Positions 1,394 to 22,117 of a DNA stretch of 42,802 nucleotides are shown one piece after another. Location of the stretch: positions 1-42,802 of the forward strand of contig CALXJM010000002.1 in NCBI GenBank assembly GCA_944388625.1. Direction: 5' to 3'. How positions within the stretch are numbered: the stretch's first letter is position 1; each line of letters begins with the position of its first letter. The notes under the pieces are model-generated. The model did no database searches, had not been told where the DNA came from, and saw only the letters and a list, made by a program, of their open reading frames with translations. This stretch comes from an uncultured Clostridia bacterium (GTDB lineage Bacteria; Bacillota; Clostridia; TANB77; CAG-508). A program made the translations under genes and the position numbers.

Positions 1394-1706
1394 AGAAAAG
1401 ATTATGGGGCTTATTGGTTTATCGATGAAAGCCGGCAAAGTAATTTTTGGTACAGAGACAGTGCGAGAAGCCGCGGAAAGAAAAAAGATAAAATTAATAA
1501 TTGTAGCGGAAGATGCTGCAGACAGAACAATACTAAATTTTAAAAAAATAGCAGAAAAGCAAAAAATATTATTTATTACCTGGGGAACTGAGCAAGAACT
1601 GAGTAAAGCTATTGGTAAAGAAAACAAAGTAATTATTGGAATAAAAGATAAAAATTTAGCAAATGCAATTATTAAAAGAATTTATGGGGGTGATACTATT
1701 GGGTAA
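1383..1706 (+). CDS. ylxQ: L7Ae/L30e-family ribosome-associated protein YlxQ
   Basis: 107 aa, overlaps the ylxR stop by 11 nt. The L7Ae-like core ([15 protein letters not shown]...KLIIVAEDA) and the conserved position immediately upstream of infB support the call. Confidence 0.8.
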
Positions 1707-4683
1707 AATAAAAATACATGAATTAGCCAAAAAATTAAACTTAAATAGTAAAGAGGTATTGGCAAAAGCGCAGGAATTAAATATCAATGTAAAAAGTCAT
1801 TTGAGCAGTGTAGACGAGGCAGATTGCGCAAAAATAGAAGCCTCCTATAATGTTCCTAAAACAACTACAAAAGAAGTATCTAAAGAATTACCAGAAACTA
1901 AAAAAGCAAAAGAAACAAAAATAGAAAAGACTTCTGGCCCAGTTATTATAAGAAGAGAAGTTATTATTAGTAAAGAAGAACAAGAAAAACAAAAAGAAGA
2001 AGAAAAAAGAAAAAATGAGCAAAGACATAATGGAAATGTTGGTTTTGTTGAGAATCAGAGAAAAAAAGATTTTAATATCGTATATAGAAATAAACAAACT
2101 AAACCATTAACAGTTAATGAATTGTTTGGAATTGGAATAAAAGAAAGTAAAAAGGAAGAGACACGCCAAGAAGTGAAAAAAACAGAAAAAATTGAGGAAA
2201 AATTTGATATGCCAAAAGTAGAAAGTGCAAAAAAGGAAGCAGAAGTAAGAATTGTAGCAAAAAATAAAAACGAGAGTTTTGAAATCAAAACAGAAAGTAA
2301 ACCAGAAATCAAAACTGCTAATAATTTTAAAAAAGAAAATTTAAATAATTATAATAAAAATAACAAAGCATCAGGATATAGAAATCATAATTCAAATAGT
2401 AATTATAAAAATGAACAAAATAATTATTCATATAATAATGGTTATCGAAACAATAGGCAGAATAATGTTCAAAGTGGAAATTACAAAAACAATAATTTTA
2501 GAAATAATAATCAAAATAACAGAAATAATAATTATAAGGACAATACACAAAATAAAAGCTTTGGAAATAATAACAATACCTATGGAAACAATCGTAGACC
2601 TCTAGATGACAAAGGAATTGAAAAGAATATAAAGAATATTATGGCTGTAGATATTGCAGAAAAAGAAAATGTTAGAGAATATTCTAATAAAGCAATTGAT
2701 AAACAAAAAAGCAATCGAGCAGAAGAAGCAAAGACAAAAAAACAAAATAAAAGTAGAAGAAACAATGAGTTTGATACTGGAAAATTGAAAAGCTTAAAAC
2801 AAGAAAGCAAATTATCACATATGTTTAATGAAGGTTCTATGCTTGACTACTATGATCTAAGTAGTAATAAAGAAAGAAAAAACAAAAAGAAAAATCAGAA
2901 AGTAGAAGAACCAGTAAAACAAAAAATATTTAAATTAACTGATATTACAATTCCAGAAACAATTACAGTAAAAGATTTAGCAGCCGAATTAAAAAAGACA
3001 AGCGGAGAAGTAATAAAAAAACTATTGAGTTATGGAACATTAGCAACCATCAATAATGAAGTAGATTTTGATACGGCATTTCTAATAGCGGAAGAATTTG
3101 GAATTACAGCACATAAAAAAGAAATAATAACAGAAGAAGACATTTTATTTGATGATAGCGAAGATAAACCAGAAGAGCTAGAACCAAGACCACCAGTTAT
3201 AGTGGTAATGGGGCATGTTGATCATGGAAAAACTTCTTTACTAGATGCTGTAAGATCAACAAACGTAATAGAAGGAGAAGCTGGAGGAATTACACAGCAT
3301 ATTGGTGCTTATAAAGTAGAAATTAATGGTAGAGAAATTACATTTTTAGATACTCCTGGACACGAAGCATTTACAAGTATGCGTGCAAGAGGAGCACAAA
3401 TAACAGATATAGCTATTTTAGTAGTAGCAGCTAATGATGGTGTTATGCCACAAACGGTAGAAGCCATCAATCATGCAAAAGCAGCTAATATTCCAATTAT
3501 TGTAGCAATTAATAAAATGGACTTAGAAGGAGCAAATCCAGAGAAAATAAAACAAGATTTGACAGAATATGGTCTAGTTCCAGAAGAATGGGGCGGAGAT
3601 ACAATTTATGTACCAATATCTGCTAAAAAACATGAAAATATAGATACTTTGCTTGAAATGGTATTACTAGTAGCTGATATGAAAGAATTAAAAGCAAACC
3701 CTAATAAACAGGCAAAAGGAGTCGTTATTGAAGCAAGATTAGATAGAGCTAGAGGACCAATTGCTACTATGTTAGTACAAAGAGGAACATTAGATGTAGG
3801 AGATACAATTGTTGTTGGATCCGTTATTGGAAGAATTAGAACAATGAAAAATGATAAAGGTCAAAATGTAAAAAAAGCAGGACCATCTACACCAGTAGAA
3901 ATTACAGGTTTAACAGAAGTACCAGAAGCAGGAGAAATTTTCTATGAAGTAGAAGATGAAAAAACAGCAAAGCATTTGATAGAAAAGAGGAAACGTCAAG
4001 CACGTGATAGAATATTAAGTTTAAATTCAACAGTAACTTTAGATGATTTATTTAATCAAATTGAAAAAGGTAATTTGAAACAATTGAATTTAATTGTAAA
4101 AGCGGATGTACAAGGATCTGTTGAAGCAGTAAAACAATCATTGGAAAAATTGTCAGATGAGAAAGTGAAAGTATCTGTAATTCATGCTAATGTTGGTGGA
4201 GTTACAGAATCAGATGTAACTCTTGCTAAAGTATCTAAAGCTATTATTATTGCATTTAATGTAAGGCCTGAACTCAGAGCAAAACAAATGGCAGAAAAAG
4301 AGGAAGTAGAAATAAAAACATATTCTGTTATTTATAATGCAATAGAAGATATTAAAGCTGCTATGAAAGGAATGCTAGATCCGATTTATAAAGAAACAAT
4401 TATAGGAAATGCAGAAGTAAGGCAAATATTTAAAGTATCCAATGTAGGAACAATTGCTGGATGTTATGTAACTGATGGAAAAATTACAAGACATTCAATT
4501 GTAAGAGTAATTCGTGACAACATTGTTATTAGTGAAGGCAAAATAGCTTCCTTAAAAAGATTCAAAGAAGATGTAAAAGAAGTCACAAAAGAGTTTGAAT
4601 GTGGTATTCAAATTGAAAATTGCAATGACATTAAAGAAGGAGACATCATAGAAGCTCATATTATGGAAGAAGTTAAAGGATAG
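1699..4683 (+). CDS. infB: Translation initiation factor IF-2
   Basis: G-domain motifs [13 protein letters not shown] and NKMD, followed by the IF-2 C-terminal domains. The longest ORF starts at ATG 1663, but TTG 1699 sits 8 nt after the SD-like GGGGGTGAT and gives [14 protein letters not shown], a typical IF-2 N-terminus. The start is therefore uncertain (1663, 1684 or 1699). Confidence 0.93.
2320..2601 (+). repeat. Asn-rich low-complexity coding tract inside the infB N-terminal region
   Basis: Read directly from the sequence. About 41 of 94 codons are Asn (AAT/AAC), interspersed with Tyr, Arg, Lys and Gln, and there are no stops in the infB frame. Confidence 0.85.
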
Positions 4684-5088: not shown

Positions 5089-6042
5089 ATGATATTAGAT
5101 AATATAAAACAAGAAATTGAAAAAGCTAATACGATTGTATTATTAACTCATGAAGTGCCAGATGGAGATGCTATAGGAAGCAGTTTAGCTATGTATATAG
5201 CGTTAAAGAGAAGCGGAAAACAAGTTGACTTAATTATAGAAAATTGTCCAAGAGTGTATAATTTTTTACCATGCGCAAAGGAAATGAAAGAAAAAAGTGA
5301 AATAGAACAATATGACTTGGCAATAGCACTCGACTGCTCTGACATAAAAAGGCTAAATGGATTTGCGGCATATTTTGAAAAAGCGAAAACCAGAATTGTT
5401 ATTGATCATCATGGAAGTAATACTATGTTTGGAGATTATAATTTTGTAAACCCAGCATCACCAGCATGTGCACAGATATTAGTGACTGTTTTAGAATATA
5501 TTGGTATAGAAATAGATAAAGAAATTGGAACATGTCTTCTAGCAGGAATTATAACTGATACAGGTGGATTTAAATATACAAATGTAACGGCAGAAACTTT
5601 TGAATTTGTAGCAGATTTATTAAATAAAGGCGTAAATGTTTCAGAAGTATATAAAAGGGTTTTGCAAATTGTATCAAGAGCTAGCTTTGAGCTAAGAAGA
5701 ATTGCTATGAACAGATTAGAACTATTGGAAGATGGAAAAATTACTTTTACTTATATTACTTTAGATGATATGCAAAAATCGAATGCAGAATTAGGTGATC
5801 ATGAGGGAATTGTAGAACAAGGAAGAGATATTGAAGGTGTTGAAGTTTGCGTATTTTTAAGAGAAACCGAAAAAGGTGACTATAAAGTATCGATGCGTTC
5901 GAACGAATATGTTAATGTAGCAGATATATGCTTAATGTTTGGAGGTGGAGGACATCCAAAGGCAGCTGGTTGCAATATTAACTTGCCTTTAGAACAAGCA
6001 AAGGAAAAAATTTTAGCACAAATTAAGCCATATCTTAAATGA
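5089..6042 (+). CDS. nrnA: DHH/DHHA1 phosphoesterase (NrnA-like nanoRNase/pAp phosphatase)
   Basis: 317 aa with DHH-family motifs PDGDAIGS, DCSD, IDHHG and the DHHA1 motif GGGGH. Confidence 0.85.
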   Translation: MILDNIKQEIEKANTIVLLTHEVPDGDAIGSSLAMYIALKRSGKQVDLIIENCPRVYNFLPCAKEMKEKSEIEQYDLAIALDCSDIKRLNGFAAYFEKAKTRIVIDHHGSNTMFGDYNFVNPASPACAQILVTVLEYIGIEIDKEIGTCLLAGIITDTGGFKYTNVTAETFEFVADLLNKGVNVSEVYKRVLQIVSRASFELRRIAMNRLELLEDGKITFTYITLDDMQKSNAELGDHEGIVEQGRDIEGVEVCVFLRETEKGDYKVSMRSNEYVNVADICLMFGGGGHPKAAGCNINLPLEQAKEKILAQIKPYLK

Positions 6043-6073
6043 AATATAGAAAACTTAATTTTGTTATAAAGTG

Positions 6074-6116
6074 AAAAGTCAAAATGGATGAAGTATGTTC
6101 ATTTTGACTTTTATTA
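6074..6116 (+). terminator. Intrinsic terminator after nrnA
   Basis: Perfect 12-13 bp stem (AAAGTCAAAATG 6075-6086 pairs with CATTTTGACTTT 6100-6111), followed by a T-rich tail. Confidence 0.75.
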
Positions 6117-6202
6117 TCTAAGATAATAAGGTCTTGTAGTATCTGCGCACATTTTTAGATTATCTATATTAGTTATTATATTCAGAAAGAAAGGAATTAT
6201 AT

Positions 6203-7090
6203 ATGAATGGAATTATAATTATAGACAAACCTAAGGGAATTACTTCTCACGATGTAGTGAGTAAAATACGCAAACTTTACCATATCAAAAAAGTAGGACA
6301 TACTGGAACATTGGACCCGAATGCTACCGGTGTTTTACCAATACTAATAGGAAATGCTACAAAACTGTCAAAATATTTAACTGAGCATGACAAGACATAT
6401 ATAGCAACAATTAAGTTAGGAGAACAAACTGATACATTAGACTCAGAAGGTGTAATTATAAAAAAAAGCAAAGTAGATGAAAAAAATATGCAAAAAGGTC
6501 GAATAAAAGAGATTTTGCAAAACTTTTTAGGCAAGCAAGCACAACAGCCTCCTATATACTCTGCTATTAAAGTAAATGGAAAAAAATTATATGAATATGC
6601 AAGGAATGGAATAGATGTAGAAATACCTAAAAGAGAAATTGAAATTTATAAGATTAATTTGGAAAGTATAAATAAAAAAGAAAGAGAAATTATAATTAAA
6701 GTACAATGTTCTAAAGGTACATATATAAGAACACTGTGTAAAGACATAGCGGAAAAATTAGAAACAGTAGGTTATATGAAAGAACTAAGAAGAATAAGTG
6801 TAAATAATTTTAATATAGACAATGCTATAGATATAGAAAAACTTGAAAAAAATAAAGATAATCAATTATTTTTAGATATGCAAATAATAGCAATGGAAAA
6901 AATATTTACAAACTTTCCTAAAATAGAATTAGAACAGAAAAAGCTAGAAGCTTTATTAAATGGAGTAAAACTAACATATTTAAAACCTGATGGACTGTAC
7001 AAAATATATAATAAAAATAAAATTTTTCAGGGGTTTGGAATAATAGAAAATCATTTATTAAAAAGAGATGTTATGGAGGAACAAGTATAA
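6203..7090 (+). CDS. truB: tRNA pseudouridine-55 synthase TruB
   Basis: 295 aa. The catalytic-Asp motif HTGTLDPNATGVLPI is present, and the position after rbfA/nrnA is canonical. Confidence 0.93.
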   Translation: MNGIIIIDKPKGITSHDVVSKIRKLYHIKKVGHTGTLDPNATGVLPILIGNATKLSKYLTEHDKTYIATIKLGEQTDTLDSEGVIIKKSKVDEKNMQKGRIKEILQNFLGKQAQQPPIYSAIKVNGKKLYEYARNGIDVEIPKREIEIYKINLESINKKEREIIIKVQCSKGTYIRTLCKDIAEKLETVGYMKELRRISVNNFNIDNAIDIEKLEKNKDNQLFLDMQIIAMEKIFTNFPKIELEQKKLEALLNGVKLTYLKPDGLYKIYNKNKIFQGFGIIENHLLKRDVMEEQV

Positions 7091-7104
7091 AGAAAATGGC
7101 GAAC

Positions 7105-7133
7105 TTTACATAAATATACAAATATGCTATAAT
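7105..7133 (+). promoter_or_regulatory. Near-consensus sigma-70-type promoter for the orphan ORF
   Basis: TTTACA (7105-7110), 17-nt spacer, extended -10 TGcTATAAT (7125-7133). SD AGGAGGG (7152-7158) lies ~10 nt before the ATG at 7169. Confidence 0.6.
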
Positions 7134-7168
7134 AAAAATGAATAAACATTTAGGAGGGAAGACTACAA

Positions 7169-7633
7169 ATGAAACGGGGACTACTTACTTTTTTGCTCAA
7201 GGCATTTGGGTATGATTTCGTGGTTGATGTAATTCGGCAACGTGTTGTCGATTGTGACAATTACAAATTGTACCAATGGCCAGATGGTGGCATTGCCATC
7301 TACACCCCTGCAGGACGAAGACTAATTCGGCAACGATTTGATGAGGTAATACCCATTATTCCCATCGGCATTATTCTGGTGAGACGCCGTTTCTTGTGGG
7401 GCGCGATAAACCTACAAGGAGCAAGTGTTCTCAAAGTAGAATGGGCGAGCATTGGTACCCAGAATGGGTACCTAATTGCACAAGAGTCAAGCAGGCGTGG
7501 ATATGTTGGAGTTTATGATACCTTGGGTGAAACCGTAGTAGAACCCAATGCATACTGCAACATAGAAATAACTATTGATAACTCCATAATCTGCACAACA
7601 GATTATGGACGAAAGCTACGTTTCCAGCGTTAG
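7169..7633 (+). CDS. Hypothetical protein with three WG-like repeats, compositionally foreign
   Basis: Uninterrupted 154-codon ORF with an SD, its own promoter and its own terminator. Hand count gives ~199 G+C in 452 nt (~44%) against 27-28% in the adjacent truB and ispG segments. 12 of 15 Arg codons are CGN. Three ~36-aa repeats resemble the WG/KWG beta-repeat pattern. Confidence 0.75.
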   Translation: MKRGLLTFLLKAFGYDFVVDVIRQRVVDCDNYKLYQWPDGGIAIYTPAGRRLIRQRFDEVIPIIPIGIILVRRRFLWGAINLQGASVLKVEWASIGTQNGYLIAQESSRRGYVGVYDTLGETVVEPNAYCNIEITIDNSIICTTDYGRKLRFQR

Positions 7634-7641
7634 TTTTCCCG

Positions 7642-7675
7642 AGAGGAGATAGAAAAATTCTGTCTCCTTTTTCTA
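7642..7675 (+). terminator. Intrinsic terminator of the orphan ORF
   Basis: GGAGATAG (7645-7652) pairs with CTGTCTCC (7660-7667) with one G-U pair and a 7-nt loop. TTTTTCT follows, starting 12 nt after the TAG stop. Confidence 0.7.
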
Positions 7676-7712
7676 TACAATAAGGTTAGGTTTCTTGGAT
7701 CTTTCTTATATA

Positions 7713-7741
7713 TTGACAAAAACAAAATAATAATATATTCT
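7713..7741 (+). promoter_or_regulatory. Candidate ispG promoter
   Basis: TTGACA (7713-7718), 17 nt, TATTCT (7736-7741). The -10 element is imperfect. Confidence 0.4.
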
Positions 7742-7763
7742 AAAGAAAAAAGGAGAAGATTAT

Positions 7764-8816
7764 ATGGTAAAAAGAAGCAATACCAGACCTATTTTTGTTC
7801 ATGGAGTACAAATTGGAGGACAGAATAAAGTAGTTATACAATCTATGACAAATACAAAAACAAAAGATATAGAAAATACAGTAAAACAAGTATTAGACTT
7901 AGAAAAAGCTGGTTGCGAAATTGTACGTTTTGCTTGCTTAGATGAAGAAGATGCTAAAGCAATTGGAAAAATAAAAAAACAAATTCATATTCCAACAGTA
8001 GCAGATATTCATTTTGACTATAGAATTGCGTTAGAAGCGATTAGAAGTGGAGTGGATAAAATTAGAATTAATCCAGGGAATATTGGAGATGAAAATAGAG
8101 TAAAACAAGTAGTTGATGCCTGCAAAGCAAATAATATTCCAATAAGAATAGGAGTAAATAGTGGCTCCATTCAAAAAGACTTACTTATTAAATATGGAAA
8201 GCCTACTGCTAAAGCTATGGTAGAAAGTGCTAAAATCCATGTAGACATATTAGAAAAACTGAACTTTCAGGATATTGCTATTTCTCTAAAAGCTTCTAAC
8301 TTAGACTTATGTATAGAAGCTTATGAAGAAGCTGCAAAAACATTTTCCTATCCATTACACTTGGGAATTACTCATGCAGGAACAGCATTTAGTGGAACTG
8401 TAAGTTCTAGCATTGGATTGGGAGTTTTGCTAAGACAAGGTATAGGAGATACTATGAGAGTTTCTCTTTCAGCAAACCCAGTAGAAGAGATAAAAGTGGC
8501 AAAAGAAATTTTAAAAGATTGCAATTTATCTTCAAATGAGCCAACTTTAATTGCTTGTCCAACATGTGGTAGATTGCAATATGATTTAATTCCAGTTGCA
8601 CAAGAAATAGAAGACTTCTTACAGACTATCCACAAGCCAATTACAGTGGCTGTTATGGGATGTGGAGTTAATGGACCAGGAGAGGCACGACATGCAGATA
8701 TAGGTATCGCAGGAGGAGTAAAAGAAGGCTTATTATTTAAAAAAGGAGAAATTGTTAAAAAAGTAAAACAAGAAGATATGGTAAAAGTGCTAAAAGAAGA
8801 AATTTTAAAGATGTAA
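7764..8816 (+). CDS. ispG: 4-hydroxy-3-methylbut-2-enyl diphosphate synthase (MEP pathway)
   Basis: 350 aa. [4Fe-4S] ligand motifs ACPTCGR and GCGVNGPGE, plus the N-terminal TIM-barrel region (VQSMTNT). Confidence 0.93.
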
Positions 8817-8870
8817 AATATTATAATTATAAAAAATAGCAGAGCATAAAATTGCTCTTATGGAGGTTTT

Positions 8871-9917
8871 ATGGAAAAAGAGAAAATAAGTATAGTAATT
8901 CCGGCATATAATGTAGAAAAATATATAGAACATTGTTTAGAAAGTGTAATTCATCAAACATATAAAAATTTACAAATAATATTAGTTGATGATGGTGCAA
9001 CGGATAAAACAAGCGAAATTTGTGATAGATATGCTAAAATAGATAATAGAATTGAAGTAATACATAAACCAAATGGAGGACTTGCAGATGCTAGAAATAA
9101 AGGTTTAGAAAGAGTAAATGGAGAATATATAGCTTTTCTAGATAGTGATGATTACATTTATCCAACATTTTATGAAGAATTATATGATTTATTAAAAAAA
9201 TATGAAGCAGATATTGCAGAGTGCGATTTCTTAAGAATTGATATAGACAATAAAGAAAAATCAGAGCAACTTATTAGCGAAGAAAATGCCAAAAGAAAAA
9301 TCGAAGAAGAAGTGACTAATAATATAGAAGCATTAAAGTTACTTTATGGAATAAAGTTAGAACCTTATGTAAAAAAAGTAGTAGTGTGGAATAAACTATA
9401 TAAAAGAGAAATATACGAAAAAATAAGATTTCCTTTAGGAAAATTGCACGAAGACGAATACACAACTTACAAGGCATTATTCAATGCAAATAAAATTATT
9501 TCTACAAATAGAGTTTTACATGGATATATGCAAACCAAAAACAGCATTATGAGGCAAGAAATAAAGCAGAAAAGAATTGATGATACTTTAGATGCATATG
9601 TACAAGTAGTAGAATTTTTTAAAAAACAAAACTTACCAGAATTAGAGATGAAAGCAAGAAGAAGATCTTTAGAAAACTGCATTGAATTAGTGGGAAAAAT
9701 TATACAAGGAAATGGAACAAATGCTAAAATGCAAGTAGAAGAAATTTCAAACGTATATAAAAAGAATGGAAAACAATACATTGAATGTTTGAAAAATAGT
9801 GAAATAGACGAAAATGAAAATAAAATTGTACAATTTTTAATAAAAACATATGAAAAAATAGAAGATGGGAAAGTGCTAGATGAAAAAACATGGACACATT
9901 TGCAAAATATGATATAA
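8871..9917 (+). CDS. Family 2 glycosyltransferase (soluble, EpsJ/CpsJ-like)
   Basis: 348 aa. The N-terminal GT-A fold carries the signatures ISIVIPAYNVEKYI, VDDGATD and DSDD. Confidence 0.8.
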   Translation: MEKEKISIVIPAYNVEKYIEHCLESVIHQTYKNLQIILVDDGATDKTSEICDRYAKIDNRIEVIHKPNGGLADARNKGLERVNGEYIAFLDSDDYIYPTFYEELYDLLKKYEADIAECDFLRIDIDNKEKSEQLISEENAKRKIEEEVTNNIEALKLLYGIKLEPYVKKVVVWNKLYKREIYEKIRFPLGKLHEDEYTTYKALFNANKIISTNRVLHGYMQTKNSIMRQEIKQKRIDDTLDAYVQVVEFFKKQNLPELEMKARRRSLENCIELVGKIIQGNGTNAKMQVEEISNVYKKNGKQYIECLKNSEIDENENKIVQFLIKTYEKIEDGKVLDEKTWTHLQNMI

Positions 9918-10612: not shown

Positions 10613-12715
10613 ATGTTTAAAACATTTAGTATGGAGCTTGCAGGAAGAACACTAACAGTAGAAAACGGAAAAATGGCAGAACTAGCCAACGGAAGTGTTC
10701 TTGTTAGATATGGAGATACTGCAGTGCTTGTTAATGTAACAGCTTCAAAGGAACCAAAAGAAGGTGTGGACTTTTTTCCATTATCTGTAGATTATGAAGA
10801 AAGACTTTATGCTGTTGGAAAAATCCCAGGAAGTTTTCAGAAACGAGAAGGAAAACCTTCAGAAAAAGCTATTTTAACATCAAGAGTAATTGATAGACCA
10901 ATTAGACCATTATTTCCAAAGGATTTTAGAAATGATGTATGTGTAAATTGTTTGGTACTATCTGTAGATCAAGATAACTCACCAGAGATATGTGCCATGA
11001 TTGGCGCTTCAGCAGCTTTATCTATATCTGATATTCCATTTGGAGGTCCAACAGGTTCTGTTAGTGTAGGGTATGTGGATGGAAATATTGTAATTAATCC
11101 AAACTCAAATGAAAGAGCTAAAAGCCTACTAAACTTAACTGTAGCTGGAACAAAAGATAAAATTGCTATGATTGAAGCTGGTGCATATGAAATTCCAGAT
11201 GACATAATGCTAGAAGCTATCAAACAAGCACATGTTGAGATTAAAAAAATTTGCGACTTTATTCAAAATATGAAGGATGAAATTGGAAAGCCAAAATTTG
11301 AATATAAATCTTTTGATGTAGACCAAAATATAATGGAAGAAATTACAACAAAATTTAAAGAAAGAATGTATAAAGATGTACAAGCAATAGATAAAACAGA
11401 AAGAGATGAAAATATTGAAAAATTAACAGAAGACATTATAAATTATTATATAGAAAAATATGGAGAAGAAGAAGCTGAAAATAAAAAAACAGATATTACA
11501 GAAAGTATTTACCGACTAGAAAAAAAATGTGTTAGAGAAATGATTCTAAAAGAACAAAAAAGGCCAGACGGTAGAAAAATAGACGAAATTAGACCATTAT
11601 CATGTGAAGTTGGTTTGCTTCCTAGAGCTCATGGTAGTGCACTGTTTACAAGAGGACAAACTCAGGTACTTTCAGTAGCAACTTTAGGTATGACAAGTGA
11701 AGAACAAATTCTAGATGGCCTAGATGAAGAAGAAGCAAAAAGATATATGCATCATTATAATTTCCCATCTTATAGTGTTGGAGAAGCGAGACCATCGAGG
11801 GGACCAGGAAGGCGTGAAATAGGACATGGAGCATTAGCGGAAAGAGCACTAGTACCGGTAATACCTAGTGAAGAAGAATTTCCATATGCAATTCGTGTTG
11901 TATCAGAAGTGTTAAGCTCTAATGGTTCTACTTCACAAGCTAGTATTTGCGGTAGTACACTTGCATTAATGGATGCGGGAGTTCCGATAAAGAAACCAGT
12001 AGCTGGAATTTCAACAGGGCTTGTAACAGATAGTGAAAATCCGGATAATTATATAATGCTTACAGATATACAGGGACTTGAAGACTTTTTTGGAGACATG
12101 GACTTTAAAGTGGCTGGAACTAAAGATGGAATAACAGCCATTCAAGTAGATATTAAAGTAGATGGGCTAACATATAATATTATTGAAGAGGCTTTTGCTA
12201 GAACAAAAAAAGCAAGAAAATATATTTTAGATGAAATTATGCTAAAACAAATTGAAAAACCAAGAGCAGAAGTTTCAAAATATGCCCCAAGAATTATAAA
12301 TATGACAATTAATCCAGAAAAAATAAGAGATGTTATTGGAACAGGTGGAAAAGTAATAAATAAAATTATTGCTGAAACAGGAGTAAAAATGGACATTGAA
12401 GATGATGGAAGGGTATTTATTTATTCTTCAGATTTAGAAGGAGCAGAAAAAGCAAGAAAAATTGTAGAAGAAATTACAAGAGAAATTGAAGTAGGGCATG
12501 TTTACGAAGGAACTGTTAGCAGAATTGCAACATTTGGAGCTTTTATCGATTTGGGAGGAGACAAAGAAGGACTTCTTCATATCTCTAAAATTTCAAAACA
12601 AAGAATTGGAAAAGTAGAAGATGTTTTAAAAATAGGCGATAAAGTAAAGGTAAAAGTATATGAAATTGATTCTCAAAACAGAATTAATTTAACATGTATT
12701 GACATAGATGAATAA
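10613..12715 (+). CDS. pnp: Polyribonucleotide nucleotidyltransferase (PNPase)
   Basis: 700 aa. Two RNase PH domains followed by C-terminal KH ([11 protein letters not shown]) and S1 ([18 protein letters not shown]) domains. rpsO-pnp synteny supports the call. Confidence 0.96.
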
Positions 12716-15604: not shown

Positions 15605-18206
15605 ATGGCAGAATTTTCGCCAATGATGCAACATTATTTAAAAACTAAAGAACAATATCAAGATTGTTTACTGTTTTATCGTTTAGGAGATTTTTATGAA
15701 ATGTTTTTTGATGATGCAATTACAGCATCAAGAGAATTAGAAATAACTTTAACAGGAAAAGAATGTGGACAAGAGGAAAGAGCTCCTATGTGTGGAGTTC
15801 CATATCATGCAGCAGAAACATATATTGCAAGATTAATTGGAAAAGGTTATAAAGTAGCAATTTGTGAGCAACTAGAAGATCCAAAAACGGCAAAGGGAAT
15901 TGTAAAAAGAGACGTTGTTAGAGTAGTTACACCTGGAACCGTTATAGAAAGTAATATGCTAGATGAAAAGAAAAACAATTATATTATGGCAATTTATAAA
16001 ATGGGACTTTATTTTGGATTAGCTGCTTGTGATGTATCTACTGGAGATTTTATGGCAACACAGATAAAAGAAGAAAATAATTTTGCAAAATTATTAGATG
16101 AATTAGCAAGATTTTCACCAGCAGAAATTGTAGTAAATGAATTACTATTTAATTCACAAGAAGAAATGAACAAAATAAGAGAAAGATTTAGTGTTTATAT
16201 TACTAAACAATCTGATAATGCTTTTAAACAAGAAACAGAAAAATTATTAAGTAATTATAAAGTGATAGATAATAAAGGAGATGAAATTACTAACGTACAA
16301 GAACAATTACTTACTATTACAGCTATTAATGGCTTGCTAGAATATTTAAATGAAACACAAAAAATAAAATTAGAACATATTAATCGTATTCAAGTTTATA
16401 AAACAACTAAATATATGGCTTTGGATGTAAATGCAAGAAGAAATTTAGAAATTACAGAACGTATGAGAGATAAAGGAAAAAAAGGAACCTTGCTATGGGT
16501 ATTAGATAAGACTGCTACATCTATGGGAGGACGCCATTTAAGAAGATGGCTAAACGATCCGCTAATTGATGTGGCGGAAATTAATAAAAGATTAGAAGCT
16601 GTAAAAGAGTTAAAAGAAAATCTTATATTAAGAGGCGATATAATTACAGCTTTAAAGAAAATTTATGATATAGAACGATTAGTTCGGAAAAATTGCTTAT
16701 GGAAATGCAAATGGAAGAGATATGATTTCACTCAAGAATTCATTAAAACAATTGCCAGAAATAAAAAAACTGCTAAGTGAAACCAAATCTAAATTATTGC
16801 AAGAATTATATAATGGATTAGATGAGTTAAAAGATGTTTGTGAATTAATTGAAAAATCAATCATAGAAGAACCACCACTTACTATAAAAGAAGGAGGACT
16901 TATTAAACTTGGTTATAATGAAGAAGTTGACAAACTAAAAAAGGCAACTACTGAAGGAAAACAGTGGATTATTGACATAGAAACAAAAGAAAAAGAAAAA
17001 ACAGGAATTAAGAATTTAAAAATTGGTTACACAAAAGTTTTTGGATATTATTTAGAAGTAACTAAATCAAATTATGATTTGGTACCAGATTATTACATAC
17101 GAAAGCAAACACTAACAAATTGTGAACGATTTGTAACAGAAGAACTAAAAAACATAGAAGACGAAATTTTAGGAGCAGAAGAAAGAATTGTTACATTAGA
17201 ATATGAAACTTTTATAGATATAAGAAATAAAATTGCAAGTCAAATACAAAGATTACAAGAGACTGCAACTCAAGTCTCTACTTTAGATGTAATTACCTCA
17301 TTTGCAATTGTAGCAGAAGATTTAAATTATGTTATGCCAATTGTAGATGAAGGAGATGAAATTAACATAAAAGACGGAAGGCATCCGGTTATTGAAAAAA
17401 TGATACCAGCAGGAAGCTTTGTGCAAAATGATACATATTTAAATCAGAGGGAAGACAGATTGTCAATTATCACAGGTCCAAATATGGCTGGAAAATCTAC
17501 TTATATGAGACAAGTCGCACTTATTACTTTAATGGCACAAATAGGTAGTTTTGTTCCTGCAAGTTATGCCAAAATTGGAGTGGTAGATAAAATCTTTACA
17601 AGAGTGGGAGCTTCCGACGATTTAGGGATGGGACAAAGCACTTTTATGGTAGAAATGATGGAAGTAGCTACTATTCTAAAGGAAGCAACAAATAAAAGTT
17701 TAATTATTTTAGATGAAATAGGAAGAGGAACATCTACCTATGATGGGCTATCTATTGCTTGGGCAGTTGCCGAATATATAGATAATAAAGAAAAATGTGG
17801 AGCTAAAACATTGTTTGCAACTCATTACCATGAACTTACAAAACTAGAAGAAAAACTAGAGGGAGTAAAAAACTATTCAATTGCCGTAAAAGAAAAAGGT
17901 GAAGATATTATTTTCTTAAGAAAAATTGTCAAAGGTGGTACAGATGAAAGCTATGGAATTCACGTGGCAAAACTTGCAGGAGTGCCACAAACAGTAGTAA
18001 ATAGAGCGAATGAAATATTAAAAACATTAGAAAGAAATGTAACAATAAAAGCAAAAGAAGAAAAAAAGATTGTAGCTGGTCAATTAGATATGTATAACTA
18101 TAAATTAGCTGAAATCGCACATGAAATTGATAAAATAGATTTAAATCAAGTAACACCAATCGATGCATTAAATATTCTTATAAAAATAAAAAATAAAATG
18201 AAATAG
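15605..18206 (+). pseudogene. mutS: DNA mismatch repair protein MutS, interrupted by a +1 frame disruption
   Basis: Two overlapping ORFs (15605-16780 and 16722-18206). The second frame is open from 16683 and reads GKIAYGNANGRDMISLKNSL, continuing the MutS sequence after ...IYDIERLV in the first frame. The C-terminal part has Walker A GPNMAGKST and DEIGRGTST. The combined length of ~866 aa equals a full-length MutS. Confidence 0.85.
16683..16686 (+). other. Site of the mutS frame disruption (apparent extra base, e.g. C at 16685)
   Basis: The downstream frame has TAG at 16680-16682 and the correct continuation starts at GGA 16686. The upstream frame is correct through GTT 16682-16684. Removing one base restores ERLVGKIAYGNANGRD. 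Confidence 0.7.
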
Positions 18207-21307: not shown

Positions 21308-22117
21308 ATGGATATAAAACGAATTACATCTGGATTAATAGGATTTCCGGTTGTGGCAATCATATTAATTTTAGGAAATAAATATATTGTAGATGTTGTA
21401 TTTAGTATAATTGCTATATTATGTATTCACGAATTTTATAAGAGCTTTAGTGTAAAATCAAAGCCAGTGCAAAGTATTGGATATATAATGGGAGCATTTA
21501 TTGCGGTAATACACATTATTCCAATAGAATTTATTATGCCTCTTATTACAGCGTTAATACCACTCCTTATTTTTGTATTATTCCTTCATGTTATTATAAG
21601 TAATATGGAGATAAATGTTGTAGATATATCAATTTCACTACTTGGAATTTGCTATGTAATAGTTTTTATTATGTTTTTACCACTTATATATGGATTGAAA
21701 ATGGGAAATATACTTATTTGGTATGTTTTTCTAGCAGCATGGGGAACTGACATTTTTGCTTATTTAATAGGTAAAAAATTTGGAAAGCATAAATTAGGTA
21801 ATAATAAAGTCAGTCCAAATAAATCATTGGAGGGGTGTATAGCTGGAATTATAGGGAGTATACTATTAATAATAATATATACAATTATTATTAATAGTGT
21901 GTTTGGTTTAGAAATTCCATATTTATTTGCTTTATTACTAGCCATTGCATTAAGTGTAGTAGGACAAATAGGAGATTTGGCGGCATCTAGTGTAAAACGT
22001 TACAATGAAATCAAAGATTTTAGCAATTTAATTCCTGGACATGGAGGAATGCTAGATAGATTTGACAGTGTTATATTTATTGCACCATTTGCATATTTTT
22101 TATTAAGCATGTTTTAA
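21308..22117 (+). CDS. cdsA: Phosphatidate cytidylyltransferase
   Basis: 269 aa polytopic protein with the CDS signature SSVKRYNEIKDFSNLIPGHGGMLDRFDS. Confidence 0.92.
   Translation: MDIKRITSGLIGFPVVAIILILGNKYIVDVVFSIIAILCIHEFYKSFSVKSKPVQSIGYIMGAFIAVIHIIPIEFIMPLITALIPLLIFVLFLHVIISNMEINVVDISISLLGICYVIVFIMFLPLIYGLKMGNILIWYVFLAAWGTDIFAYLIGKKFGKHKLGNNKVSPNKSLEGCIAGIIGSILLIIIYTIIINSVFGLEIPYLFALLLAIALSVVGQIGDLAASSVKRYNEIKDFSNLIPGHGGMLDRFDSVIFIAPFAYFLLSMF

Follow-up and report, generated by a model that had tools for sequence, protein, structure and literature searches.

How did a small gene of foreign composition, equipped with expression signals of its own, come to lie between truB and ispG in an AT-rich bacterium? 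The question is raised by an open reading frame (ORF) encoding 154 amino acids at positions 7169-7633 of contig CALXJM010000002.1 (GenBank assembly GCA_944388625.1), which belongs to an uncultured Clostridia bacterium. The window referred to below is the whole stretch of DNA analysed, 42,802 nt of the forward strand. The ORF with its signals, here called the cassette, is probably a single-gene islet that encodes a minimal WG-repeat protein and was acquired horizontally by an ancestor that two sister species share.

The ORF is foreign in its base, codon and amino acid composition. The compositional background is formed by the 33 other genes of the 42.8-kb window, not by the whole genome. Against a mean of 28.5% guanine plus cytosine (G+C) in these genes (standard deviation (sd) 2.4) and 28.7% over the whole window, the ORF has 44.1% (z 6.6). 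The excess extends to third codon positions (GC3 0.39 against 0.150±0.018, z 13.4), to four-fold degenerate sites (36% GC against 11% in native genes) and likewise to first and second positions (GC1 and GC2). Arginine is encoded by CGN in 12 of 15 cases, compared with 83 of 456 in the remaining window genes, and the residues themselves are shifted: the ORF protein contains 9.7% Arg and 3.2% Lys, native proteins 3.6% and 10.1%. An index akin to the codon adaptation index (CAI), with the pooled window genes as reference, takes the value of 0.313 against 0.696±0.037 (z -10.5), and none of 286 native chunks of matched length scores as low; the tetranucleotide distance has a z of 5.1. The deviation begins and ends with the coding sequence (CDS). 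G+C rises from 0.25 in 7130-7169 to 0.42 in 7170-7209 and falls from 0.50 in 7610-7649 to 0.28 in 7650-7689, a step that matches both CDS ends to within one 40-nt bin, and the intergenic flanks are host-like at 25.6% and 26.2% G+C. An earlier note on this stretch, made from the letters alone, had described a compositionally foreign gene of about 44% G+C between AT-rich, host-like flanks, with a predominance of CGN arginine codons and a compositional step at the CDS boundaries, and had proposed codon adaptation and tetranucleotide comparisons. All of this is borne out: with the window as background, the ORF falls outside the native distribution in both comparisons.

The gene is also narrowly distributed. 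The truB-ORF-ispG arrangement was found on four further metagenome contigs, from four samples and two assembly pipelines, with identical junctions. Two of these (L003 and L004) represent the same species, with a 99% identical protein and the same flanks, and two (L001 and L002) a sister species, with an 86% identical protein and flanking genes of 85-96% nucleotide identity. The ORF is absent from all 80 next-nearest genomes of a species-representative collection, which are named as uncultured gut Clostridia, Clostridium sp. CAG:508 among them, and have TruB at most 62% identical. Among 1.84 billion representative proteins, close relatives of the ORF protein form a single 50%-identity cluster; degenerate-pattern scans of JGI metagenomes and IMG/VR revealed no relative, and tblastn searches of phage and plasmid collections no match. 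The earlier note had regarded universal presence at this locus in relatives, combined with purifying selection and a known function, as speaking against a foreign origin. Purifying selection is indeed found (see below), while the gene occurs in none of the 80 relatives and has no known function.

The site itself is variable. The gene ispG lies downstream of truB in only four of the 80 related genomes (L010, L036, L051 and L076). In L010 the two genes are separated by 78 bp, an empty site without the ORF; in L036 (6201-6875) and L051 (6012-6704) the slot is filled by a gene for a YgjP-like (HExxH) metallopeptidase; in L076 ispG follows some 4.9 kb 3' of truB, with several genes between. In other genomes, metG, prmC, a YgjP-like peptidase gene, pilin-like genes and others come after truB. 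Because ispG follows truB in these four genomes only and varied genes are found elsewhere, this clade has a synteny breakpoint 3' of truB rather than a frozen neighbourhood, and since a YgjP-like gene sits in the truB-ispG slot of two relatives and the slot is empty in L010, its content turns over. The description of the surroundings as one of the most conserved gene neighbourhoods in bacteria therefore fails for this clade. No ribF, which the earlier note placed in this slot in many Firmicutes, was seen among the downstream-of-truB genes tested in the related genomes. A second foreign-looking small gene occurs at the same breakpoint in another genome (L083 3336-3776, minus strand), where an ORF of 146 amino acids directly 3' of truB has 40% G+C and a GC3 of 0.39 in a locus of 30% G+C, with no Pfam match.

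Comparison with the sister species (L001) indicates that the ORF is a real protein-coding gene kept by purifying selection. The two copies are 80% identical in DNA and 86% in protein; their differences are distributed over the three codon positions as 17/11/64, that is, 64 of 92 fall on the third position, and the ratio of non-synonymous to synonymous rates (dN/dS) is 0.074. Apart from the annotated frame, no frame is open in both species. The third-position excess, the low dN/dS and the single shared open frame argue for a translated gene under purifying selection. Synonymous divergence, at a dS of 1.13, is about twice that of the neighbouring genes (0.24-0.62, or 0.38-0.62 leaving out the short rpsO). 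Part of this doubling would be explained by ongoing amelioration, the gradual approach of an acquired gene to host composition. Under a simple Hasegawa-Kishino-Yano (HKY) model with native equilibrium frequencies, fitted to native four-fold sites, the GC of the ORF at such sites (GC4) would have been about 0.57 at the species split. The model yields a four-fold divergence of 0.395 for the ORF, against 0.542 observed and 0.248 in native genes; modelled amelioration thus raises the divergence in the right direction, yet incompletely.

The cassette and its downstream neighbour comprise the following elements.

7105-7133, plus strand: predicted sigma-70-type promoter, with -35 TTTACA at 7105-7110, a 17-nt spacer and an extended -10 TGcTATAAT at 7125-7133
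7152-7158, plus strand: Shine-Dalgarno (SD) sequence AGGAGGG, 10 nt 5' of the ATG, as read from the sequence
7169-7633, plus strand: the ORF (CDS), of foreign composition, for a basic (isoelectric point 9.2) minimal WG-repeat protein of 154 amino acids
7641-7675, plus strand: predicted intrinsic terminator, made up of a 14-bp stem-loop and a U-rich tract behind it
7713-7741, plus strand: promoter-like site of ispG, TTGACA-17-TATTCT with 10 of 12 matches, 3' of the cassette terminator

The predicted cassette promoter matches the consensus at 11 of 12 positions, includes the TG of an extended -10 element and has no second copy in the window. Its -35 and -10 are identical in L001, with a single change in the spacer, and the SD sequence is unchanged in all four orthologous loci. 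The predicted terminator hairpin (7641-7671; -17.5 kcal/mol, z -4.85), which is missing from the output of a simple terminator scan, is kept in L001, where one U·G pair is replaced by C-G and one pair is broken. The promoter-like site of ispG is conserved as well. Non-coding DNA around these conserved signals varies between the window and L001 and includes a 130-nt insertion in the latter. This insertion (L001 ~2540-2670) lies between the cassette terminator and the ispG promoter and holds a second hairpin, GAAAAATTGC-ATA-GCAATTTTTC. The promoter, SD sequence and terminator proposed from the window alone are all in place and conserved in the sister species.

The means of entry left no recognisable trace. 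A search for direct or inverted repeats and target-site duplications flanking the ORF returned only low-complexity, AT-rich chance matches, and no integrase, transposase, tRNA, insertion sequence (IS) or attC site was seen near it among the window ORFs or in the repeat search. The absence of mobility signatures noted earlier is thus upheld, there being no credible flanking repeats and no integrase near the ORF. Membership in a mobile element was rejected for want of an integrase or transposase, terminal inverted repeats and a target-site duplication. An IS200/IS605-type or integron-cassette model, prompted by the hairpins and the lack of inverted repeats and duplications, was likewise rejected, as neither a Y1 transposase or integrase nor an attC-like site was present.

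The ORF protein belongs to the WG-repeat superfamily, of which it is a minimal and divergent representative. Its direct Pfam match to WG_beta_rep (PF14903) covers one repeat (residues 77-103) at 15.6 bits (E 0.017), the cut-off being 25.6. A word-indexed search found two close clusters only. An exhaustive phmmer (HMMER) search of the 1.84 billion representatives gave 754 distant matches at E<=1e-3, 34 of them at E<=1e-10, the best being a WG_beta_rep protein (E 2.8e-23, 29% identity). The 149 distant matches that were listed are long proteins, each matched over several stretches, and all seven phmmer matches scanned in Pfam carry PF14903, at 160-482 bits. The few distant homologs with a source name come from Bacteroidota. 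In pairwise BLASTP and phmmer alignments, residues ~31-154 match WG units repeatedly (P0003, P0066), and a periodicity can be seen. The protein can be divided as follows.

7169-7243, plus strand: N-terminal ~25 residues (MKRGLLTFLLKAFGYDFVVDVIRQR), with a helix predicted at residues 3-12
7259-7630, plus strand: ~3.5 WG-type repeats, at amino acids 31-65, 66-100, 101-137 and, partial, 138-154, the boundaries being approximate and drawn by eye

The canonical dipeptide occurs only as W77-G78 (7397-7402), in the repeat 66-100 that shows the pattern hydrophobic-x-WG-x-I/V-D/N-x-x-G; the equivalent positions in the other repeats are G40-G41, V113-G114 and Y146-G147. The N-terminal segment aligns with the signal-peptide region of P0066, a WG protein of 337 amino acids, and may be either degenerate signal-peptide-like or amphipathic; K11, D16 and D20 interrupt it and make it too polar to be called a signal peptide with confidence. 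An AlphaFold2 (AF2) model based on a 41-row alignment of homologous WG repeat segments has a mean predicted local distance difference test (pLDDT) score of 88.1 and a predicted template modelling (pTM) score of 0.77. The pLDDT is 85-97 over residues 30-154 and ~60 in the N-terminal segment, and the model contains 14 strands, about four per repeat. It replaced a first model built from a 3-sequence alignment (pLDDT 61.6), the Foldseek result of which was discounted. Foldseek relates the model to beta-propeller blades (the designed half-propeller Ika4, PDB 6g6q, BamB and WD40; best E 7e-5, template modelling (TM) score ~0.4), and the same kind of blade match was obtained from a viral library. Searched by sequence with the ORF protein and with two WG proteins of canonical type, the PDB yielded no relative of solved structure; NCBIfam and PADLOC were empty for the ORF protein, PHROGs gave a chance-level match (E 0.1), and literature searches returned nothing functional on WG-repeat proteins. 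The structure prediction and Foldseek search proposed in the earlier note have thus given a confident model with propeller-blade matches. Its phrase "unknown function" holds for function, none being known for the family, and no longer for the identity of the protein. In an unrelated genome (L088 1843-7567, GCA_031552735.1), a TipC-family gene, DUF2691 and several small ORFs without annotation come after the gene for P0066, an array that looks immunity-gene-style.

The predicted folding of the transcript is unusual too. For the plus strand of 7140-7675 the predicted folding energy is -186.5 kcal/mol, where dinucleotide shuffles average -138.7±6.5 (z -7.4); the minus strand reaches a z of only -3.35. 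For the CDS alone, z against dinucleotide shuffles is -5.3 (window) and -5.7 (L001); synonymous-codon shuffles, which keep the protein, give -4.6 and -3.8, none of 100 shuffles being as stable. The mean z of 21 native gene chunks is -0.22 (sd 1.53, minimum -3.89). Three elements stand out in the prediction.

7209-7274, plus strand: predicted 66-nt G·U-rich hairpin in the CDS, sense-strand-specific
7583-7609, plus strand: perfect 11-bp hairpin in the 3' end of the CDS, TCCATAATCTG-CACAA-CAGATTATGGA
7629-7640, plus strand: segment of stop codon and 3' untranslated region (UTR), GUUAGUUUUCCC, for which pairing with the 5' UTR close to the SD sequence (7156-7166) is predicted

In L001 a C-to-U change turns one pair of the hairpin at 7583-7609 into a wobble pair and so preserves it, and loop changes lengthen its stem in L001 and L003. 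In the hairpin at 7209-7274, 10 of the 12 pairs changed in L001 are still paired, all by one-sided changes, a result not significant alone. The helix between the SD region and the 3' UTR, next to which 7171-7175 is predicted to pair with 7620-7624, has a core pair probability of at least 0.9 in the window and in L001; its columns are mostly invariant and so give no covariation evidence. The 3' half of the SD sequence (7156-7158) is predicted to be paired with the 3' UTR at a probability of at least 0.99 in both orthologs. Over the whole transcript, seven pairs show double compensatory changes and some 19 consensus pairs are broken in L001. Permutation of substitution positions gives z values of 1.4 and 1.9 for pairs kept and +0.5 and -1.8 for threaded energy, a weak outcome for one specific shared structure, with two diverged lineages to compare. 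An Rfam search of 6000-9000 at E<=1 found no match. Unusually stable folding is predicted for both species; one specific conserved structure within it is a possible reading and not a finding. Within the controls, the strongest folding excess belongs to window 21482-21946, in the gene 21308-22117 (minimum free energy -105.7, where synonymous shuffles average -86.8±4.9; z -3.9; 26% G+C), which may be a structured mRNA region.

Four other explanations of the locus deserve consideration. That the cassette is an assembly chimera or a contaminant insertion is next to impossible: the abrupt compositional step, and nothing else, would suggest it, and the recurrence of the same junctions on four contigs from four samples and two assembly pipelines, which answers the call for a junction check by comparison of contigs, excludes chimerism, as does a sister-species copy that has diverged in step with its flanks. 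A native, vertically inherited gene, its odd composition due to protein constraint or local mutation bias, would fit the shared locus and purifying selection in two species, the host-like flanks and the failure to find a donor or a mobility signature. It would have to coexist with a GC3 13 sd above that of native genes, a threefold GC content at four-fold sites (36% against 11%), foreign CGN codons and a great excess of Arg over Lys, a sharp step at both CDS ends and absence from the 80 next-nearest genomes, the empty truB-ispG site included, and we regard it as highly improbable.

It is unlikely, on the other hand, rather than improbable in the same degree, that the locus acts mainly as RNA, a GC-rich structured or dual-function transcript of ~530 nt whose structure keeps GC high and whose 5'-3' helix occludes the SD sequence. 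The strand asymmetry of folding, the stability of the CDS relative to synonymous shuffles in both species and to the near-zero average of native chunks, the 11-bp hairpin kept or extended in orthologs, and the SD/3'-UTR helix with its high pair probability in both species together with the seven double compensatory pairs all point that way. The coding signal is nonetheless unambiguous, comprising dN/dS, third-position excess and protein homology; Rfam is silent; the permutation test is weak and about 19 pairs are broken in L001; one of the 21 native chunks folds with a comparable z of -3.9; two diverged lineages afford minimal power to detect covariation; and RNA structure leaves the foreign GC1, GC2 and preference for Arg over Lys unexplained. 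A reading of the locus as structured non-coding RNA only was ruled out by dN/dS and protein homology. A horizontally acquired orphan immunity-type or anti-toxin binding protein, made constitutively and neutralising a competitor's secreted toxin, is suggested by analogy with the interbacterial defence genes that gut bacteria acquire. The small, lone, acquired gene with its strong, constitutive-looking promoter, the gut or animal sources indicated by names of samples and metagenome-assembled genomes, and a predicted repeat scaffold suited to protein binding agree with it, as does the position of the distant homolog P0066 (29% identity) directly 5' of a TipC-family gene; TipC confers immunity to a toxin secreted by a type VII system. 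That neighbourhood is the sole supporting one and belongs to a very distant homolog, those of other homologs being unrelated. The window holds no toxin, secretion system or immunity family, the protein matches no Pfam immunity family and nothing in PADLOC, and the literature search found no link of WG repeats to immunity, so that this role appears very unlikely. The two ideas may be combined in a dual-level element, an acquired WG half-propeller, toxin-neutralising or envelope-binding in gut competition, whose selected mRNA fold gates translation or stabilises the transcript. A selected fold of this kind (the SD/3'-UTR helix and internal hairpins) would, if true, account for high GC persisting since before the species split; we hold the combination to be distinctly unlikely.

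The preferred explanation remains the acquisition of a single-gene islet. The islet would have entered the variable region 3' of truB before the split of two AT-rich species of uncultured gut Clostridia, in a single acquisition from a much more GC-rich donor (GC at four-fold sites ~0.57 or more at the split), and would then have been retained under selection while amelioration continued. As mobility signatures are absent, illegitimate recombination at the synteny breakpoint is our default assumption for its insertion. With its own strong promoter and terminator, the ORF would be transcribed as a monocistronic unit, leaving ispG insulated from the cassette and served by its own promoter at 7713-7741. 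Given blade-like repeats and no catalytic signature, the product would be non-enzymatic, a scaffold that binds a protein or envelope ligand. It would comprise ~3.5 WG-type blades behind a short N-terminal helix, and might oligomerise to complete a propeller.

Several points weigh against this explanation. The 34 genes of one window are the entire background against which the ORF is an outlier. No donor and no close homolog outside the lineage was found, the next-best homolog being 29% identical, so that the argument for horizontal gene transfer (HGT) is one of composition and patchy distribution; integrase, repeat and attachment-site signatures are missing at the ORF. The observed synonymous divergence exceeds that of the amelioration model (P ~0.015). 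The direct PF14903 score is under the gathering threshold (15.6 against 25.6 bits), and the Foldseek TM-scores are only ~0.4. Transcription of the cassette is deduced from sequence signals, and "binding scaffold" is a generic statement, no function being known for the WG family.

The remainder of the window has a Firmicutes-type core gene order, with nusA, infB, rbfA, nrnA and truB followed by ispG, rpsO, pnp, miaB, mutS and polC, part of the gene names having been assigned from reading translations. InfB (gene 1663-4683) contains a long low-complexity stretch rich in Asn, Gln, Lys and Arg in its N-terminal region (window ~2310-2600). The mutS gene (15605-18206) carries a +1 frameshift at the A5 run 16688-16692 (CGG AAA A ATT; intact reading ...LVRK-IAYGNANGRD...). 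The same frameshift is present in the sister species (L001 10693-12489, site ~11776-11780), no further stop codons have accumulated, and both halves are under strong purifying selection (dN/dS 0.042 in the N-terminal part and 0.137 in the C-terminal part). The pattern points to a split but functional gene, or to recoding by a +1 slip on AAA A, and not to a dead pseudogene or a sequencing error.

If the islet explanation is true, the locus offers a clean, datable case of one foreign gene still in the course of amelioration, fixed without a mobile-element scaffold in an AT-rich, small-genome gut lineage. The ORF protein is the smallest WG-repeat protein in the present analysis, and its 154 residues would make it a convenient target for a first experimental structure and a partner search in a large family that is uncharacterised in structure and function. 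No general picture is changed otherwise, lineage-specific HGT singletons without known function being common. The locus had been put forward as the strongest candidate for something new in the stretch; the gene is real, but it appears to be an ordinary islet with a known protein family.

Set beside known systems, the cassette resembles other HGT single-gene islets and ORFans in its atypical composition, patchy distribution, position at a synteny breakpoint, own expression signals and continuing amelioration. It differs from them in having no tRNA, integrase, IS, repeat or attC nearby and in having persisted through speciation under strong purifying selection. The mRNA invites comparison with those of the hok type, in which 5'-3' pairing occludes the SD sequence: a helix between the SD-proximal 5' UTR and the region after the stop codon is predicted in an unusually stable mRNA of both orthologs. 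The product, however, is no small membrane toxin but a repeat protein of 154 amino acids, neither a gene nor a promoter for an antisense RNA was found, and the helix is a prediction without covariation support. With WG_beta_rep proteins (PF14903) the ORF protein shares apparent beta-rich repeats of ~35 residues, canonical in the unit 66-100, and an all-beta, blade-like predicted fold, and HMMER matches it significantly to hundreds of undisputed members (best E 2.8e-23). It departs from them in having ~3.5 repeats in 154 amino acids, where the matches have 4-12 or more detected repeats in 300-1300, in carrying the WG dipeptide in one repeat only, in lacking a convincing signal peptide or lipobox, and in belonging to a subfamily limited to two sister species. 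With the beta-propellers (BamB/PQQ-like, WD40, Ika4), finally, similarity is confined to a predicted model and reaches a TM of ~0.4 at 10-17% identity, without a sequence relationship; the likeness lies in successive four-stranded antiparallel blades (Foldseek E 7e-5 to 1e-3, probability 1.0) and, for Ika4, in a protein of the size of a four-blade half-propeller.

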